A DNA stretch of 5,646 nucleotides, from positions 1 through 5,646 of the IMG/VR virus record IMGVR_UViG_2667527717_000010, one strand, 5' to 3'. The notes under the pieces are model-generated. The model was not told where the DNA came from. It saw only the letters and a list, made by a program, of their open reading frames with translations, and searched no databases. Shown here in pieces: positions 1 to 5,646 of the stretch. Position numbers and translations under genes: made by a program. This DNA is from a virus. Taxonomy: Duplodnaviria; Heunggongvirae; Uroviricota; Caudoviricetes. Each line of letters begins with the position of its first letter. The stretch's first letter is position 1.

Positions 1-2
1 CA

Positions 3-161
3 ACGTACGCCAAAACCGCCAGGTGCGTGGAAACGGGTGATTTTGCCCGGGCTTGGCAGGAAGGTGTTCGGATCTTCGGCGTTGATACGGCATTCCACCG
101 CATGGCCGCGAACGTGAACTTGAAGAGCGTGAGGCACTGGAAGCCAGGCAACAGGCCATGA
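3..161 (+). CDS. 3' end of an upstream ORF entering from the left edge (frame 3, open from position 3 to TGA 159-161); product unknown, possibly an upstream part of the exonuclease gene
   Basis: Frame 3 is open from the window edge and translates to a protein-like sequence (...[41 protein letters not shown]). Frames 1 and 2 both contain stops in this interval. No start is visible, so it is partial. Assignment is weak. Confidence 0.3.
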
Positions 162-217
162 TGGAAGGGCAGCAGGAGGGCGGACATGTCTCTCACTAAA
201 TTACTGCCGCTGCTGCC

Positions 218-502
218 ATGTATTGCGAGACCGCAGCGCTTGACCAGTTCTTCTGGATTTTCGTCAACAAAGACGAGAACTACCACTGGATCGCCATCAT
301 CGAGGCATCCGCCGAACTTCTGGAACTGGGCATGCTGGAGTACCGCAAGGCAATGCGCGCCATCGCTACCGGCTTTGACACTGGCGAGTGGCCAGCGCCG
401 ATCACCTCCGGTAACTCCGATGAAATAGCCGACTACACCGACGAACTGAACGATTTCGACACACGCCGCCTTGAAGCGCTGCGTACGGCACAAGGGGAAT
501 GA
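218..502 (+). CDS. C-terminal region of a lambda-Exo/YqaJ-type 5'-3' exonuclease; the N-terminal catalytic portion is absent from this frame, so this is probably a disrupted gene or remnant
   Basis: The translation contains WIFVNKD...HWIAIIE...GFDTGEW, which I match from memory to the lambda Exo C-terminus (WYFANYD...HYVVIE...GFVFGEQW). It sits immediately upstream of, and is coupled to, an annealing-protein gene, as in exo/SSAP pairs. Frame 2 is blocked by TAA 197-199 just upstream, there is no Shine-Dalgarno before ATG 218, and no frame is open across 1-217. Confidence 0.45.
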   Translation: MYCETAALDQFFWIFVNKDENYHWIAIIEASAELLELGMLEYRKAMRAIATGFDTGEWPAPITSGNSDEIADYTDELNDFDTRRLEALRTAQGE

Positions 503-1554
503 TGATGGAAAAAAACAACGTAGCAGTAATTGAACATAACGAACCGAGCACGATGAATAACACATCCCTGCTTCTGAATATCGACGTCATGGATCGCATG
601 ATGAAGCTAGCAGAGGTGATGTCTCAGGGCGTCGCGACAGTACCGAAACATCTACAGGGAAGACCTTCTGATTGTCTGGCAATAATCATGCAGGCCGCTC
701 GTTGGGGTATGGACCCATTTGTTGTAGGACAGAAAACACACCTGGTTAACGGGGCTCTGGGTTATGAAGCACAGCTTTACAACGCTTTAATCACCAGCTC
801 CAAAGTTGTACACGGGCGCTTTAAATACGAGTACGGCGGTGAGTGGGAAAAAATTGTTGGCAAAAAAGACGGGCGTGATGAATCAGGTTTGTTTGTTCGT
901 GTCGGAGCAGTTCTTCGAGGCGAGACAGAGGTGACCTGGGGAGAGCCAATTTACCTTGCTGATATTACTACGCGAAATTCCCCTTTGTGGAAAACCGCAC
1001 CTAAACAGCAAATAGGTTATTTGGCCGTTAAGTATTGGGCGAGGACTTACTGCCCTGAAGTCACAATGGGTGTTTATGACAGAGAAGATCTGGAACAACG
1101 AACAGAGCGCGAAATTAACCCTGCACCAATCCAACGAATGAGCGCTGCTGAAATCGCAGGTGACACCGTCACAACCACACAAAACACGCAGGAATCGTCA
1201 GTAAATATCGACTCACTGGCTGATGTTTTCCGCGAACGCATCAATGCTACGCAGGATGTAGACAGCGCCAAAGTAGTCCGGGCTGATATCGAAAGCGCGA
1301 AGGTCACACTCGGTTCGGCTCTGTTCACCGAACTGAAAAACAAGGCAGTGAAGCGCTATTACCTGGTAGATCACCGCAACAAAGTTGAAGCCGCGATCAA
1401 CTCCCTGCCGTCTCCGGACGAACCGAATGCAGCAGAACGGTTCGGAGAAGTTGAGCGAGCTCTTGCTGCGGCCAAACGTCACCTGGGTGACGAGCTGCAC
1501 GATCAGTTCAGCATCACCCTGGCAGATATGAAACCGGAATACATCACTGCATAA
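499..1554 (+). CDS. RecT/Bet (Red-beta)-family single-strand annealing recombinase, 351 aa
   Basis: Long ORF with the start overlapping the upstream stop (ATGATGATGG; the real start may be ATG 502 or 505, given the GGGGA at 494-498). Segment CLAIIMQAARWGMDPF..THLVNGALGYEAQL and later SPLWKTAPKQQIGYLAVKYWARTYCPEV resemble, from memory, conserved blocks of E. coli RecT and lambda Bet. Acidic C-terminal extension. Position matches a phage recombination module. Confidence 0.6.
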   Translation: MMMEKNNVAVIEHNEPSTMNNTSLLLNIDVMDRMMKLAEVMSQGVATVPKHLQGRPSDCLAIIMQAARWGMDPFVVGQKTHLVNGALGYEAQLYNALITSSKVVHGRFKYEYGGEWEKIVGKKDGRDESGLFVRVGAVLRGETEVTWGEPIYLADITTRNSPLWKTAPKQQIGYLAVKYWARTYCPEVTMGVYDREDLEQRTEREINPAPIQRMSAAEIAGDTVTTTQNTQESSVNIDSLADVFRERINATQDVDSAKVVRADIESAKVTLGSALFTELKNKAVKRYYLVDHRNKVEAAINSLPSPDEPNAAERFGEVERALAAAKRHLGDELHDQFSITLADMKPEYITA

Positions 1555-1569
1555 CGGAGGTGGTTGAAT

Positions 1570-1908
1570 ATGCCCAGATCAAACCCACCACAAAAGCAGG
1601 AGGCACTCATTCAGATAATCATCGAGGAAGTGAACCTGCGTGGTCGCCTGACCGTTAACCAGGCATCAGAGATGTTGTCGCTGCACCGTGGGACAACAGA
1701 AAAGTACTTTCGGGAAGCGACAATACGCGGTGGCCTTATTCGTCATGGACGCTGCGGCCTGTTCCGCGACCAGCGGGCTGTGCTTGATTTTGACTTACAG
1801 CGATTTTCGTACAACTCAGGAAAGTCCCTGGTGGATTTGCCGCCGGATTTTCGGGGAAGCGCGGTAATGCGCCGGGTTATTGAAATCGTGGGGAGGATGC
1901 CAGTATGA
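1570..1908 (+). CDS. Hypothetical small protein, about 112 aa, possibly with a helix-turn-helix-like segment
   Basis: ORF in the operon chain; GGAGG at 1556-1560 sits 9 nt before ATG 1570 (the ORF track begins at an in-frame TTG at 1564). Segment LTVNQASEMLSLHRGTTEKYF looks helix-turn-helix-like; no family recognised. Confidence 0.5.
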   Translation: MPRSNPPQKQEALIQIIIEEVNLRGRLTVNQASEMLSLHRGTTEKYFREATIRGGLIRHGRCGLFRDQRAVLDFDLQRFSYNSGKSLVDLPPDFRGSAVMRRVIEIVGRMPV

Positions 1909-2288
1909 CAATCGATAAACAGGCGCTGCGCCAATTAGCAACTGATGCGCACGAGCTTGGCATCATCAAGCGTTACACGAAAGGCATCGAGGCCAATAAG
2001 CGATTCATCGCCGCATTCAACCCGGCTACGGTGCTGGCGCTGCTGGATGAGCTGGAGAAAGATAACTGCTCAAACGTTCATTATGCTGACGCCGCCGAGA
2101 TGGAAATTGCAGCATTACGCCAGCGCATAGCAGAACTGCAAATTGCTCGAGACAAATGTTTCCTGAGCGGCCTGAAAACCGGCTGGGAATATGGCATTGC
2201 TGATGATACGGAAGGGTATAACCGTGAAATCGCTGATGCACAGGCAGTAATCGACCGCGCCGCTGGCATTGGCGTGAAGGGGGAATGA
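1905..2288 (+). CDS. Ead/Ea22-like prophage early-region protein, 127 aa
   Basis: ATG 1905 overlaps the upstream stop (ATGA). N-terminus MTIDKQALRQLA... and the NPATVLALLDELEK block match my recollection of the Ead/Ea22-like family common in enterobacterial lambdoid prophages. Confidence 0.5.
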   Translation: MTIDKQALRQLATDAHELGIIKRYTKGIEANKRFIAAFNPATVLALLDELEKDNCSNVHYADAAEMEIAALRQRIAELQIARDKCFLSGLKTGWEYGIADDTEGYNREIADAQAVIDRAAGIGVKGE

Positions 2289-2289
2289 G

Positions 2290-2472
2290 ATGGAACTAGT
2301 CATGTGGATATTCAAGTGCATAGGCGTAACTATTTGCCTGTTATCAGGGATACTGGTTACCGCTCTACTGGTGGGATTCGTAGCTCAATATTCCTGGGAA
2401 AAAATAAGGGTAGCTCATTCCGTTGTTGAAATTCAACGCGCCGTAAAGGCCTACAAAAACAAGAAGGACTAA
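2290..2472 (+). CDS. Small predicted membrane peptide, 60 aa, single N-terminal transmembrane helix and basic C-terminal tail
   Basis: ATG 2290 lies 1 nt after the upstream stop, preceded by AAGGGGGA. Hydrophobic stretch WIFKCIGVTICLLSGILVTALLVGFVA followed by a charged tail (KAYKNKKD). Confidence 0.45.
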   Translation: MELVMWIFKCIGVTICLLSGILVTALLVGFVAQYSWEKIRVAHSVVEIQRAVKAYKNKKD

Positions 2473-2589
2473 CCCATGACCACTATTACCAAAAAACAGC
2501 GTGCAGAGTTGCGCATGAAGTTCGGCGGTCGTTGTGCTTAGATTGGTAGCGCATGTCTGGCAGCACCGACACAAACAGAAGGATAACCG

Positions 2590-2847
2590 ATGTTCTGCCT
2601 GATTCAGCGTGGACAAATTTATACAGATTTTGACGGCTATCCTGTGACGATTTACCGCTGTGACGCCGACAGGATTGTGTATCGCCGTAATGACAGCCAA
2701 ATCCGTTCGGTTTCCACTGGTGAATTTAATGCGAAATTCGAGCGTATTGAATATCAGGAATATGCGCAGATAAAAGCCGAAATGGCCCGGGAGGAAAATA
2801 TCCGAAATTTACGCAATCAGGCCAGAGAAAATAAAGCAGCAGGATAA
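2590..2847 (+). CDS. Hypothetical protein, 85 aa
   Basis: ORF in the same orientation with AAGGA a few nt before ATG 2590; protein-like composition with a charged, helical-looking C-terminal half. No family recognised. Confidence 0.4.
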   Translation: MFCLIQRGQIYTDFDGYPVTIYRCDADRIVYRRNDSQIRSVSTGEFNAKFERIEYQEYAQIKAEMAREENIRNLRNQARENKAAG

Positions 2848-2939
2848 ACGCTGATATTGCCAGACAGTAAATAGAGGTAGAACGCTTAAAAACACCGCTC
2901 ACGCGGCGGGATTCGTGCAGCCTGAAAACGGAGGACATT

Positions 2940-3164
2940 GTGGACGCATTATTACGATACGCAACAAACAGAATTATCGAACTGGAGACCATGCTGTTAC
3001 CCGCAATACCGGAAATCATCCTTCGGGATTACCGTGGCAAGAAGTACACCAAGGACAAGCAAATTACTAGCTGTGGTAATGCGGTACCACCGCAGTTAGC
3101 TGAGGCGCTGGTGAGAGCTAACCTGCCTGAAATGTGTGTACAGCGTGAGGATCAGGCTGCATGA
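2940..3164 (+). CDS. 74-aa ORF carrying a cytosine-C5 DNA methyltransferase motif-X-like signature (SCGNAVPPQLAEALV); likely a C-terminal remnant of a prophage orphan methyltransferase, or a small methyltransferase-tail-like protein
   Basis: GTG start 5 nt after a strong GGAGG (2930-2934); the stop overlaps the next gene's ATG (ATGA at 3161-3164). GNAVPP followed by LA.A is the classic motif X of C5-methyltransferases (established knowledge). The in-frame upstream region is open only back to TAA 2868-2870, so there is no room for motifs I-VIII. Confidence 0.45.
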   Translation: MDALLRYATNRIIELETMLLPAIPEIILRDYRGKKYTKDKQITSCGNAVPPQLAEALVRANLPEMCVQREDQAA

Positions 3165-3514
3165 AAAAACATATCTGCATGTTTTGTGGTGAACCGGCCA
3201 CGCTGCTCTGCGATGGGAATCTCGGCTTTCCTCCAAAAGATGACCGTGGCAGAGAATGCATTGACGCATTCCACCAATATACCTGCGATGCGCCCATGTG
3301 CAGAAAATGTGGCACGCAGATGATGCGCATGTTCGTATCCGGGCGGAAACCTTATGCGGGGATCCACACAGTAGATCACTGCCCTATTTGTCTGCGTGAT
3401 CTGCCAACCTATCCAGCCCATGTGCGAAGGACATCTACTCGCAGGAGCAGGCAGAAGTTATCCGCGCTTCGCATTGGGCTGGTTACCAGAATGACCATAC
3501 GAAACGGCTGGTAA
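3161..3514 (+). CDS. Cys-rich putative zinc-ribbon protein, 117 aa, with a basic C-terminal tail; possibly a Lar/restriction-alleviation-like or other anti-defence protein
   Basis: Translationally coupled ORF. Three CxxC pairs (C6/C9, C47/C50, C74/C77) plus further Cys and His residues, and an Arg-rich C-terminal tail. It sits in the xis-proximal accessory position where Rac-type prophages carry ydaC/ralR-like genes. The functional label is inference. Confidence 0.5.
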   Translation: MKKHICMFCGEPATLLCDGNLGFPPKDDRGRECIDAFHQYTCDAPMCRKCGTQMMRMFVSGRKPYAGIHTVDHCPICLRDLPTYPAHVRRTSTRRSRQKLSALRIGLVTRMTIRNGW

Positions 3515-3578
3515 CTGAAAAAGGAGCTGAGCTGCAATCCTTTGATTTCTGGACCTGATCATCGTTGTTCAACCCCGG

Positions 3579-3609
3579 CCATCAGCTATTACGTATAGTG
3601 CGCTGATGG
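3579..3609. promoter_or_regulatory. Perfect 8-bp inverted repeat CCATCAGC-N15-GCTGATGG with a nested TACGTA palindrome in the only sizeable intergenic gap upstream of xis-int; candidate operator or regulatory hairpin
   Basis: Read directly: 3579-3586 CCATCAGC and 3602-3609 GCTGATGG are reverse complements; TACGTA at 3590-3595. A possible -35/-10 pair (TTGTTC 3565-3570, 16-bp spacer, TATTAC 3587-3592) overlaps the left arm. A second inverted repeat (GGTCAT 3608-3613, ATGACC 3628-3633) brackets the xis ribosome-binding site. Confidence 0.3.
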
Positions 3610-3634
3610 TCATAAAGTAAAAGAGACATGACCA

Positions 3635-3853
3635 ATGATTCAGCAAATCGTTTTTAATGAAGAATGGATGGTAGAAAAAAAACTACAGGATCGGACTGGT
3701 TTAAATGACCGCCAGATTGAGAAATACAGGCAAAATTGCTGGATTGAAGGGGTTCATTTTAAAAGAGTATCTCCCTTAGGAAACCTCAGAAGTTCTCGCG
3801 GAACGACCTGGTACAACTACCCCATGATTAACAAGTTTATTCAGGATTCCTAG
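3635..3853 (+). CDS. xis: Excisionase (Xis/AlpA-like winged-helix directionality factor), 72 aa
   Basis: Small basic ORF ending 2 nt before the int start codon. EEW...R.G...RQI.K.R...WIEG.HF pattern resembles lambda-type Xis (from memory); xis-int adjacency is canonical. Confidence 0.65.
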
Positions 3854-3855
3854 CG

Positions 3856-5103
3856 ATGGCTGCTTTACCAACAGGTGTAGAAATCAGAGGTAGTAGCATC
3901 TGTATCTGGTTTATGTACAGAGGAAAACGTTGCCGCGAAACTCTCAGAGGATGGAGCATAACACCTGCTAATATCAGAAAAGCAGGTAATCTGCGCTCAA
4001 TTATCGTCAGTGAAATCAACATGGGCGAGTTCGACTACCAGACTCGCTTCCCATCCTCCAAAAAAGCAATAAAAATTGTCACTACGGTTTCAGTCAGAAC
4101 TCTAGGCGAACTCTGTGATCTGTGGCTGTCGATAAAAGAGACTGAACTGGCGGCTAACACCTTGCGCAAAACCAGCTCGCAGCTCGACACGCTGAAATTC
4201 ATTATCAATAAAAACACGCCACTTTCGACGATTCGCCACAGCGACATTCTGAACTACCGCAACGAGCTGCTAAACGGAGAGACAAATTACCGAAACGCCA
4301 CGAGAGGAAATAAAACCGGCCGTACCGCGCGCACGGTTGATAATTACATTTCCCTGCTCTGCTCCCTGCTCCGTTTTGCGCAGCACTCAGGGTTTATTAA
4401 GCACAAACCTTTTGAGGGGGTTCGGAAGCTGCAAAAAGCCCGGATCAAACCGGACCCGCTCACAAAGCAGGAGTTTGCACAGTTGATGGAAGCAGAATAC
4501 GGCCAGAGCCAGAATCTGTGGAAATTTGCAGTATATACGGGCCTTCGTCATGGTGAACTTGCTGCGCTGGCGTGGGAGGATGTGGATCTCGAGGCGGGAA
4601 CAGTCAGCGTGTGCCGTAATCTGACCATTATCGGTACCTTCGGGCCGCCAAAGACAGATGCAGGCTACCGGACAATAAAGCTGCTGGAACCTGCGTTGGA
4701 AGCGTTGAAAGCACAGCGTGAACTTACCGCCCTCCAGCCAAAGTCAAAAATCGTTTTTAACCACCGTGAATATGGAAGGACAGAAACCCAGCGCGTGCAC
4801 TTTGTTTTCATGCCAAGGATGCGTAAAGGCGAGCAAAAACCGTATTACAGCGTATCGAGCATCGGGCACCGTTGGAACGCTGCCGTAAAACGTGCTGGCA
4901 TTCGTCGTCGGAATCCATATCACACACGGCATACTTTCGCCTGCTGGTTGTTATCCGCCGGTGCAAACCCGTCGTTTATCGCAAGTCAGATGGGACATGA
5001 AAATGCACAAATGGTTTATGAAGTATATGCAACATGGATGGATGATATGAACAAAGATCAAATTGAACTAATTAATAGAAACTTACTAAACTCTTTATTT
5101 TAA
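3856..5103 (+). CDS. int: Lambda-family tyrosine integrase (site-specific recombinase), 415 aa
   Basis: N-terminal arm-binding-type block LPTGVEIRG...WFMYRGKRCRETL; catalytic-domain signatures RHGELAALAWEDVDL, HTRHTFACWLLSAGANP and the terminal Tyr region MVYEVYATW (R...H-x-x-R...Y of tyrosine recombinases). Overall resemblance to Rac-type IntR is from recollection. Confidence 0.9.
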   Translation: MAALPTGVEIRGSSICIWFMYRGKRCRETLRGWSITPANIRKAGNLRSIIVSEINMGEFDYQTRFPSSKKAIKIVTTVSVRTLGELCDLWLSIKETELAANTLRKTSSQLDTLKFIINKNTPLSTIRHSDILNYRNELLNGETNYRNATRGNKTGRTARTVDNYISLLCSLLRFAQHSGFIKHKPFEGVRKLQKARIKPDPLTKQEFAQLMEAEYGQSQNLWKFAVYTGLRHGELAALAWEDVDLEAGTVSVCRNLTIIGTFGPPKTDAGYRTIKLLEPALEALKAQRELTALQPKSKIVFNHREYGRTETQRVHFVFMPRMRKGEQKPYYSVSSIGHRWNAAVKRAGIRRRNPYHTRHTFACWLLSAGANPSFIASQMGHENAQMVYEVYATWMDDMNKDQIELINRNLLNSLF

Positions 5104-5646
5104 GAAAGATGATATAAACATCGTACAATTCAAAATCAGATTACTGAATGATAATGCCGACACTAAACCGAATATTTTATATAACGTGTTACATTGAGAA
5201 TCCAATGCATTCTCTTTTTTATTAAGCTCCGTCAACTCTAACTTTTTCAACTCATCACGCATTGTCCTAAAAAGAACACTATACTCTGACTGACATTCTT
5301 GCACCAATACTTTTTGATAATTTGTAAGATAATATATGGTGAACGTCGTATATAAAGAAAGAACTATAGCTGCCATATTTAAAACCCACGAGTTTACATT
5401 ATCAAATTTCCCCATGGCAGCAAAACTGATTATTCCAGATATAGGAATGGCAAGTGACCTTGTAAGGGTGTCATACATTATGGAATTGAGTTTAGATAAA
5501 TAATCCCTGAATTTCTCTTGGTACTCCTTTCTTATTTTTTCAAAACTAAACCCGACCGTAAACGAAAGGTAATTTTCTTGGAAAATCCGTGAGAACAATG
5601 TAAAGTCGGTTAAAATTTTTGAAAGTCGATCTTCTTTCTTTACTCT
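5095..5646 (-). CDS. AT-rich gene for a predicted membrane protein (two central transmembrane helices, a coiled-coil-like segment and a hydrophobic C-terminus), convergent with int; the 5' end probably lies beyond the window
   Basis: Minus-strand frame open from the window edge (5646) to the stop at 5095-5097. The ORF track starts at TTG 5596-5598, which has no Shine-Dalgarno; the first ATG is codon 41 (5476-5478). Hydrophobic segments LAIPISGIISFAAM, WVLNMAAIVLSLYTTFTIYYL and IFGLVSALSFSNLILNCTMFISSF. The stop lies 9 bp inside the int coding end. G+C is visibly much lower than in the prophage genes. Confidence 0.5.
   Translation of the reverse strand, partial: RVKKEDRLSKILTDFTLFSRIFQENYLSFTVGFSFEKIRKEYQEKFRDYLSKLNSIMYDTLTRSLAIPISGIISFAAMGKFDNVNSWVLNMAAIVLSLYTTFTIYYLTNYQKVLVQECQSEYSVLFRTMRDELKKLELTELNKKENALDSQCNTLYKIFGLVSALSFSNLILNCTMFISSFLK

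Follow-up and report, generated by a model that had tools for sequence, protein, structure and literature searches.

Four intact genes and three wrecked ones: the segment between recombination genes and xis in a Rac-like Escherichia coli prophage as a probable exo-xis-type region under erosion

A cluster of six small open reading frames (ORFs), termed ORF A to ORF F, was analyzed in a stretch of 5,646 nucleotides (nt) of viral DNA (IMG/VR record IMGVR_UViG_2667527717_000010, positions 1 to 5,646; referred to as the window). The element is a Rac-like prophage integrated at ttcA in Escherichia coli. In the wider locus, genes encoding YdaT, a helix-turn-helix (HTH) repressor, YdaE, RecE (approximately 1,035 amino acids, aa) and RecT precede the cluster, which is followed by xis, int, a two-gene cassette and ttcA-dbpA-zntB; ttcA is the location of the locus in both E. 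coli and Salmonella. An earlier note on this DNA had assigned the cluster to the variable early region of a lambdoid phage and had proposed a candidate anti-defence and host-takeover island. The genomic context bears out the assignment: in this lambdoid (Rac-like) prophage, the cluster occupies the variable delayed-early region that separates the recombination genes from xis/int. The interval itself is most likely an ordinary accessory segment of the exo-xis type, comprising four intact genes and three wrecks, and not an active anti-defence island.

All six ORFs were found at the described sizes, both in the ORF list and in the raw sequence (Table 1). Each start is preceded by a Shine-Dalgarno-like sequence and, since database relatives were identified for every ORF, the six do not represent chance ORFs. 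The ATGA overlaps at 1905-1908 and 3161-3164 are present in the sequence, as is the 1-nt gap between ORF B and ORF C (stop TGA at 2286-2288, base 2289, ATG at 2290). Tight head-to-tail packing applies to these junctions but not to two spacers of 117 nt (2473-2589) and 92 nt (2848-2939), of which the former conceals a gene relic absent from the original list. Likewise, all six ORFs have relatives, but not all of them can be regarded as genes: ORF E is the scar of a deletion that fused two genes, and ORF F is frameshifted. The statement that most of the ORFs are unassignable was incorrect, since five of the six have a clear family and the sixth belongs to a defined, albeit unnamed, family.

Table 1. 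Positions of the cluster features and of the adjoining xis and int genes in the window.
Feature	Position	Strand	Description
ORF A	1570-1908	+	112 aa; alternative TTG start at 1564
ORF B	1905-2288	+	127 aa; short Ead/Ea22-like coiled-coil protein
ORF C	2290-2472	+	60 aa; single-pass membrane protein, basic C-terminus
HNH::DUF551 deletion scar (unlisted)	2476-2589	+	
ORF D	2590-2847	+	85 aa; intact DUF4222 protein
ORF E, whole	2940-3164	+	74 aa; GTG start
ORF E, 5' part	2940-3014	+	First 25 codons of a small gene of approximately 85 aa, with upstream ribosome binding site
ORF E, 3' part	3015-3164	+	Last 49 codons and stop of a C5 cytosine DNA methylase gene
ORF F, as annotated	3161-3514	+	117 aa; stop at 3512-3514
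ORF F, in-frame part	3161-3431	+	Codons 1-90; 8-cysteine zinc-finger domain
ORF F, displaced part	3432-3558	+	C-terminal helical module and tail, out of frame
xis	3635-3853	+	DUF1233 excisionase; Pfam and PHROG matches
int	3856-5103	+	Tyrosine integrase; Pfam and PHROG matches; closes the operon

The composite nature of ORF E became apparent from its PHROG matches, which are split: residues 1-27 correspond to the N-terminus of the 85-aa family phrog_16025, and residues 26-74 to the final 49 positions of a methyltransferase family of 400 aa. In Citrobacter werkmanii, Citrobacter braakii, Pseudescherichia and Klebsiella phage 5 LV-2017, a gene of approximately 85 aa is followed by a gene for a C5 methylase of 621-715 aa. 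A Salmonella relative featuring an intact methylase at the same position is 95-96% identical to the window. In this strain, Salmonella Denver (L115), positions 6601-7076 show 96% identity to window positions 2540-3015, and positions 9244-9359, the 3' end of the gene for a 711-aa methylase (73 bits against PF00145), show 95% identity to window positions 3015-3130. As these two pieces flank an L115 segment that is absent from the window, 2,167 bp have been lost. The small gene of L115 starts VDALLRYSINRIIELETMLLPAIPE and continues with TVW, and the deletion junction at 3014/3015 reads ATACCGGAA followed by ATCATC, with a microhomology of 1 nt. Codons 26-85 (60 codons) of the small gene and approximately 660 codons of the methylase gene were removed. 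Furthermore, the 3' part of ORF E shares 80% protein identity with residues 573-621 of the C. werkmanii methylase, and a tblastn search with ORF E matched the C-termini of phage C5 methylases. An interpretation of ORF E as a simple C-terminal methylase fragment was dropped once the upstream small gene had been found, in favor of a two-gene fusion scar.

Full-length relatives carry the motifs DNFAGGGGAS, SPDC and ENV. C5 methylase motif I, the PC of motif IV and the ENV of motif VI are absent from the 74-aa ORF E, the only methylase motif left is motif X (GNAVPP, residues 45-50), and ORF E did not match any Pfam model including PF00145. Since FAGGGG, the PC motif and ENV have all been deleted, ORF E cannot methylate DNA; its product, and likewise that of ORF F, is predicted to be non-functional. 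The locus resembles those of phage orphan C5 methylases (e.g., the 'putative methylase' of Klebsiella phage 5 LV-2017) in that the preceding gene of approximately 85 aa is represented in ORF E and that the 3' part of ORF E is a true methylase C-terminus, with 71-80% protein identity to others besides L115. It differs from them in that the catalytic and target-recognition parts (approximately 660 codons) are gone. Orphan phage methylases shield phage DNA from host restriction, and the deleted C5 methylase would have been the region's one bona fide anti-restriction function. Accordingly, the idea of a region housing counter-defence genes holds for the ancestral locus with its orphan C5 methylase, but only 49 C-terminal codons of this gene are left. 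In Salmonella Denver and its relatives (L114-L116), the block from the DUF977 gene to the DUF4222 gene, the small gene and the C5 methylase gene resides in a different phage backbone. There, a P2 gpA-type replication initiator, DUF968 and a Q antiterminator come after the block in place of ORF F, xis and int; its occurrence in another backbone shows that the block is mobile as a unit. The intact methylase module of the relative L032 had no match in complete E. coli genomes.

The gene that follows has been damaged as well. ORF F matched phrog_10082 (E 7e-24) with residues 1-96 aligned to profile positions 1-93 of 138. Its intact relatives comprise 130 or 138 aa, and residues 91-117 of the window product do not align with them. 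From position 3400 onward, another frame reads IYSQEQAEVIRASHWAGYQNDHTKRLVTEKGAELQSFDFWT followed by a stop, which represents the C-terminal module of the family (consensus ..EQAxxIRAAHWAGF..GGGQQxFDF). In comparison to the closest intact relative (L032, 86% DNA identity), one T is missing between 3431 and 3432, three substitutions in the tail have changed the invariant GGGQQ to GAELQ, and the former stop codon TGA now reads TGG. The altered codons show no variation among 16 of 16 intact homologues. A programmed frameshift was dismissed, since a slippery site is missing, downstream codons that are otherwise invariant have degenerated and the stop codon no longer exists.

The order of events can be deduced from Salmonella Ank. 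This strain shares the methylase scar in the form of a 74-aa fusion that is 95% identical to ORF E, and it retains the TGG stop-loss of ORF F, having lost nearly all of ORF F (window 3190-3542, approximately 353 bp) by a separate deletion. The shared methylase scar combined with distinct ORF F lesions indicates that the methylase was lost first and that two independent inactivations of ORF F followed. Decay of ORF F in two sister lineages after methylase loss would fit a functional link between the two genes. The zinc-finger gene was formerly coupled translationally to the methylase gene, and its frameshift lies ahead of the conserved C-terminal module.

The third wreck lies within the spacer between ORF C and ORF D. 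It begins with a 21-codon ORF at 2476-2541, MTTITKKQRAELRMKFGGRCA, which ends in TAG, and window positions 2488-2540 show 85-92% identity to phage genes annotated as HNH endonucleases, at the 5' ends of these genes. In Salmonella Ank (L117), an intact 140-aa HNH-type gene starts MALTKKQRAELRMKFGGRCAYCG, and an intact 240-aa DUF551 gene ends ..LPAAPKQTEG-stop just before the DUF4222 gene. Behind the TAG codon, the window reads ..AAPTQTEG-stop, corresponding to the last approximately 12 DUF551 codons and ending at 2586. The presence of HNH 5' codons together with a DUF551 3' end points to a fusion of HNH-5' to DUF551-3' with a loss of approximately 1.65 kb. The HNH label of the stub rests on annotated DNA matches, the 140-aa protein of L117 scoring 16.4 bits against Pfam HNH, which is below the threshold. 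Both this stub and the ORF E scar were probably made by illegitimate deletions.

ORFs A to D appear intact. ORF A belongs to Pfam DUF977 (PF06163; 53.4 bits, cut-off 22.1) and matches phrog_2391, annotated as 'DNA binding protein', over its full length (E 2e-37); a GGAGG is located 8 nt upstream of its ATG. A winged-helix fold has been assigned to DUF977 (PMC2686095). Judged by these matches, ORF A is an intact DUF977 protein of the winged-helix DNA-binding type, the fold being adopted from the literature. ORF B is a member of Pfam Ead_Ea22 (PF13935; 45.3 bits, cut-off 27, residues 3-55), covering only profile positions 3-81 of 139. It matches 12 PHROG families of the Ead type, including phrog_1667 (133 aa) over its full length, and its stretch at window positions 2072-2138 shows 97% identity to the Ead gene of an epsilon15-type phage; the orthologue in Salmonella Ank comprises 137 aa. 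In lambda and Phi24B, Ea22 acts pro-lysogenically (PMC7093339, PMC10834534). ORF C matches phrog_3958 (E 6e-11) and is strongly hydrophobic in residues 10-31 (Kyte-Doolittle mean 2.57). Its slot is variable, since close relatives hold an HNH gene or an unrelated 67-aa gene instead.

ORF D contains the Pfam DUF4222 domain (47.7 bits, cut-off 27) and matches phrog_285 over its full length (E 2e-24). Homologues were found in 139 phage records, mostly Shiga toxin (Stx) phages, where they adjoin xis/int. The sole characterized DUF4222 member is RgdR, encoded on island OI-51 of enterohemorrhagic E. coli (EHEC) O157:H7, which activates ler and the locus of enterocyte effacement (LEE) and represses motility; its RGD motif is needed for activity, and the exchange R20C abolishes activity (PMC10877973). 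ORF D resembles RgdR in featuring the same Pfam domain, in being a small prophage-encoded protein and in its location close to xis/int. It differs in having no RGD tripeptide; its conserved N-terminus reads IQRGQIYTD, and the RGQ, which its Stx-phage homologues share, may or may not occupy the position of RGD in RgdR. In addition, the source strains are not known to provide an LEE context. Searches of PDB sequences did not reveal relatives of ORFs A, B and D. By analogy to characterized relatives, which tune the lysis-lysogeny decision or host gene expression, similar roles may be proposed for A to D. Copies of the cluster in E. coli differ by 4-5 single-nucleotide polymorphisms (SNPs), which is too little variation for selection tests on these four genes. 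Exact-protein look-ups located the cluster in draft E. coli assemblies, where the RefSeq names are 'DUF977 family protein', 'ead/Ea22-like family protein', 'DUF4222 domain-containing protein' and 'hypothetical protein'.

The gene order places these elements in a familiar framework. In the Stx phages BP-4795 and JLK-2012, an Ead/Ea22 gene is followed by a small gene, DUF551, DUF4222, a further small gene, xis and int. This matching order identifies the arrangement of ORF B, ORF C, the stub, ORF D and, further downstream, xis and int as the canonical lambdoid exo-xis module on a RecET-type prophage. As in the exo-xis region (BP-4795 ORF7-ORF3; ea22 region of lambda), the segment lies between recombination genes and xis-int, is delayed-early, is tightly coupled translationally and has a mosaic composition. 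In contrast to that region, the recombination module is RecE/RecT (Rac type) instead of exo/bet, the DUF551 slot is reduced to the HNH::DUF551 stub, ORF B is short (127 versus 256-277 aa), and the DUF977 gene, the membrane microprotein and the remnants of the methylase gene and ORF F are added. The corresponding segment of the Rac prophage of E. coli K-12 is recT-ralR(lar)-rcbA(ydaC)-xisR-intR, in which the same interval holds the restriction-alleviation gene. The prophage described here shares with K-12 Rac the ttcA integration site and the flanking YdaT, YdaE, RecE, RecT, xis and int genes, whereas RalR has no homologue among the six ORFs, and the DUF1187 (RcbA-like) genes occurring at this place in relatives are missing from the window. 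Searches with the whole window against complete E. coli genomes and phage records yielded DNA matches to recET only.

The question remains whether the cluster nevertheless acts against host defences. That it constitutes an active island, with small proteins now inhibiting defence or host functions, is considered unlikely. This proposal is right about the position in an early accessory region, and it gains from the orphan C5 methylase of the ancestral locus, from the small membrane protein encoded by ORF C and from the probable beta-clamp binding of intact ORF F relatives described below. Moreover, ORF A resembles the Ren-like protein gp44 of mEp237 in length (112 versus 114 aa), in its N-terminal winged helix and in a C-terminal ..SAxMRRV..GR motif common to both. 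Homologues of ORF A in Gifsy-1/2, SPN3UB and Klebsiella phages adjoin replication genes, being placed after them like ren of lambda. This resemblance is a weak indication, and nothing else in the cluster hints at a counter-defence role; the pairwise alignment spans 20 aa only, and the best families of ORF A are phrog_2391 and DUF977. Other observations point the other way: the only recognizable counter-restriction gene is deleted and its neighbor is frameshifted, lysogeny and host regulation are the processes affected by the characterized relatives Ea22 and RgdR, and selection on the segment is relaxed, as indicated by three separate deletions or lesions in a stretch of 1.1 kb. Profile searches for each ORF, as the earlier note had recommended, did not return an anti-restriction annotation in PADLOC, NCBIfam, Pfam or PHROG. 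No known defence or anti-defence family was matched by ORFs A to D and F in PADLOC, NCBIfam and Pfam; PADLOC v2 and the curated NCBIfam models gave no matches at all for A, B, D and F. In these two libraries, ORF C yielded one marginal ZorA match (E 0.036) and ORF E only methylase tails (E approximately 1e-3 or weaker), and the best PHROG families are annotated as 'unknown function' or 'DNA binding protein'.

Several points nonetheless weigh against the interpretation as an ordinary segment under erosion. ORF A matches the 'Ren-like' family phrog_142, if weakly (E 0.0013), and the intact genes A to D could still hold counter-defence activities. The truncated products of ORF E and ORF F may still be made and retain some activity, given a strong ribosome binding site and an intact zinc domain. 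The ratio of nonsynonymous to synonymous substitution rates (dN/dS) of the ORF F zinc domain versus L032 is 0.13; its rise to 0.45 after the frameshift, compared to 0.20 between intact relatives, rests on few substitutions and is suggestive. Finally, the promoter search reported below is a simple consensus scan. A possibility building on some of these points is that ORF E, truncated ORF F or both are neo-functional microproteins, e.g., a stand-alone zinc finger useful to the lysogen. The ORF E fusion is in frame, its GTG start keeps a GGAGG 5 nt upstream, and the ATGA coupling to ORF F is preserved; the allele is fixed in many E. coli assemblies, and in some remote family members, e.g., the 77-aa P0055 and a homologue in L031, the zinc domain makes up the whole protein. 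However, the low dN/dS value derives mostly from the history before the frameshift, formerly invariant downstream codons have decayed, Salmonella Ank deleted nearly all of ORF F, ORF E lacks a complete domain, and the 117-aa product is without a protein accession at NCBI, so that such a gain of function is regarded as quite improbable. An origin of the frameshift and the deletions in assembly or sequencing errors of a single draft genome is hardly conceivable. The 5' edge of the window does look chimeric, with nt 1-121 representing a piece of accC that does not continue into recE. However, the exact 117-aa ORF F allele occurs on 82 contigs (118 blocks) from independent runs, and six fetched E. 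coli loci, 99.9-100% identical, all carry the same lesions; an identical allele in so many places indicates a fixed mutation and not a sequencing error. As the fusion ORF was also found in Salmonella Ank, independent assemblies effectively refute an artefact, and erosion of an exo-xis-type segment remains the preferred interpretation.

In order to characterize what was lost with ORF F, its intact family has to be considered. The close family consists of 18 clusters among 5.8 billion proteins, and a profile search retrieved approximately 375 representatives (at 50% identity) featuring the N-terminal domain. In the 18 clusters, C6, C9, C17, C42, C47, C74 and C77 are invariant, and C50 is nearly so. 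No Pfam or NCBIfam model covers the family, and Pfam searches with 130 members and 10 longer members did not reveal a known domain or an informative fusion. An AlphaFold model of an intact homologue, computed from a deep alignment, reached a predicted local distance difference test (pLDDT) value of 87, its low-confidence tail being consistent with disorder; no structural neighbor of the family was found.

The tails of close relatives consist of an invariant GGGQQ followed by x-[LF]-x-[FL]-COOH, with the further variants GGGQICLDL, GGGQLCLDL, GGGQLTLF, GGGQQCLPF and GGGQQTFDF. Diverged members end in clamp-type pentapeptides (QLSLF, QLGLF, QISLF, QMRLF, QPDLF). Motifs binding the beta clamp are of the forms Q-phi-x-[L/M]-[F/L] and Q-phi-x-[L/M]-x-[F/L] and are usually located at flexible termini (PMC11139829, PMC6511837). 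Within the last 14 residues, Qxx[LM]F was present in 13 of 165 members (0.20 in shuffled sequences) and the hexapeptide form in 32 of 165 (0.69 in shuffled sequences). These 46-65-fold enrichments over shuffles are inflated by relatedness, although the pentapeptide cases are spread over representatives at 50% identity. The clade nearest to the window (QQ[ST]FDF) shows two departures from the canonical motif. Intact relatives hence appear to carry the beta-clamp motif in exact or nearly exact form, and the window copy does not, its motif region being out of frame and reading GAELQSFDFWT. From these tails, we infer that the intact family binds the host beta clamp. A comparable case is provided by phage Mu, in which the C-terminal QPDLF of MuC binds the clamp (PMC12867686). 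Like the MuC/Mor late activators, intact ORF F relatives are small and feature a clamp-type motif on a flexible terminus, and remote members share the exact QPDLF. In contrast to MuC/Mor, ORF F represents an 8-cysteine zinc finger without a Pfam match, a relationship in sequence or fold is missing, and clamp binding is predicted.

Genes of the ORF F family occupy two kinds of position: in Rac-like prophages they directly precede xis, and in nin regions they follow NinB. A DNA methylase gene lies at most 1.3 kb upstream in 11 of 18 genome loci, and in six of these 11 its stop overlaps the start of the ORF F gene by 4 nt. Among 80 viral loci, a methylase gene directly abuts in 16 (eight C5 and eight Dam); NinB or DUF1187 are commoner neighbors. 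An obligatory linkage was therefore rejected, the abutting arrangement being limited to 16 of 80 viral loci. The linkage is recurrent, involves two unrelated methylase classes and two genomic neighborhoods, and is not obligatory. Whether the intact relatives constitute an undescribed phage zinc-finger family with a clamp-docking disordered tail, recurrently positioned 3' of orphan methylases, is in our estimation an evenly balanced matter. The position next to methylase genes suggests a replication-fork-coupled protection of phage DNA or a clamp-directed host takeover; the proteins may inhibit the clamp, link another process to replication forks or cooperate with the methylase.

Regarding transcription, a consensus scan of positions 1400-3900 did not detect a sigma-70-like promoter on the + strand; the single match was on the - strand (3.1 expected). 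As an internal promoter was not found, transcription of the cluster probably continues from the early-left operon upstream, which extends from recE-recT to xis-int, and the cluster would thus be co-transcribed with it. Rfam did not reveal an RNA family in the window, and a repeat search of the window returned nothing meaningful. Within the spacer between ORF D and ORF E, a minus-strand terminator-like hairpin, CGCCGCGTGAGCGGTG followed by TTTTT, was observed at 2893-2908; a minus-strand gene upstream of it is not evident.

Further observations concern the surroundings of the cluster. Window nt 1-121 match an internal piece of accC at 100%, a gene that every one of the 5,426 complete E. coli genomes contains. 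In related prophage loci, the alignment to the window starts no earlier than nt 211, within recE. A chimera or a rearrangement breakpoint probably accounts for the 5' edge of the contig, which leaves the findings on the cluster untouched. In the E. coli variant L003 (74-1584), genes for a Gin/Pin-type resolvase, a Com zinc-ribbon protein and a Mom-like DNA modification protein are located directly upstream of a truncated recE; the early arm thereby carries a further DNA-modification module of the anti-restriction type. The GC content drops to approximately 31% downstream of int. The low-GC two-gene cassette between int and ttcA (L001:11935-14174) comprises a 402-aa gene, the 3' part of which occupies window positions 5095-5646 on the - strand, and then a 341-aa YejK/NA37-like gene. 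The encoded proteins showed remote similarities, far below threshold, to NCBIfam DS1_2_antiphage (402 aa; 51 bits, cut-off 315) and to DS1_1, 'nucleoid-associated anti-phage protein' (341 aa; 27 bits, cut-off 330), and PADLOC v2 did not yield a match for the cassette. The cassette probably represents a divergent form of a two-gene defence system at the prophage end, and the actual defence-like cargo of the element seems to be located on the other side of int. In the E. coli assembly L005 (5403-5867 and downstream), only a truncated NA37-like gene is present and the ttcA-dbpA-zntB-dgcM-smrA block is absent; since the prophage end there abuts abgR-abgABT-ogt-fnr, a chromosomal deletion beside the prophage is indicated.

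The result obtained for the cluster is mainly corrective, since an apparent island of six unknowns turns out to be a standard mosaic exo-xis segment under erosion, and the 74-aa and 117-aa ORFs should not be counted as candidate new effectors. At the same time, the locus documents the stepwise decay of a prophage at nucleotide resolution, with one shared deletion and two independent hits in E. coli and Salmonella. The useful lead is provided not by the window copy but by the unannotated and structurally orphan family of intact ORF F proteins. If its proposed clamp docking is true, this family would extend the short list of phage proteins known to engage the bacterial sliding clamp by a new class.

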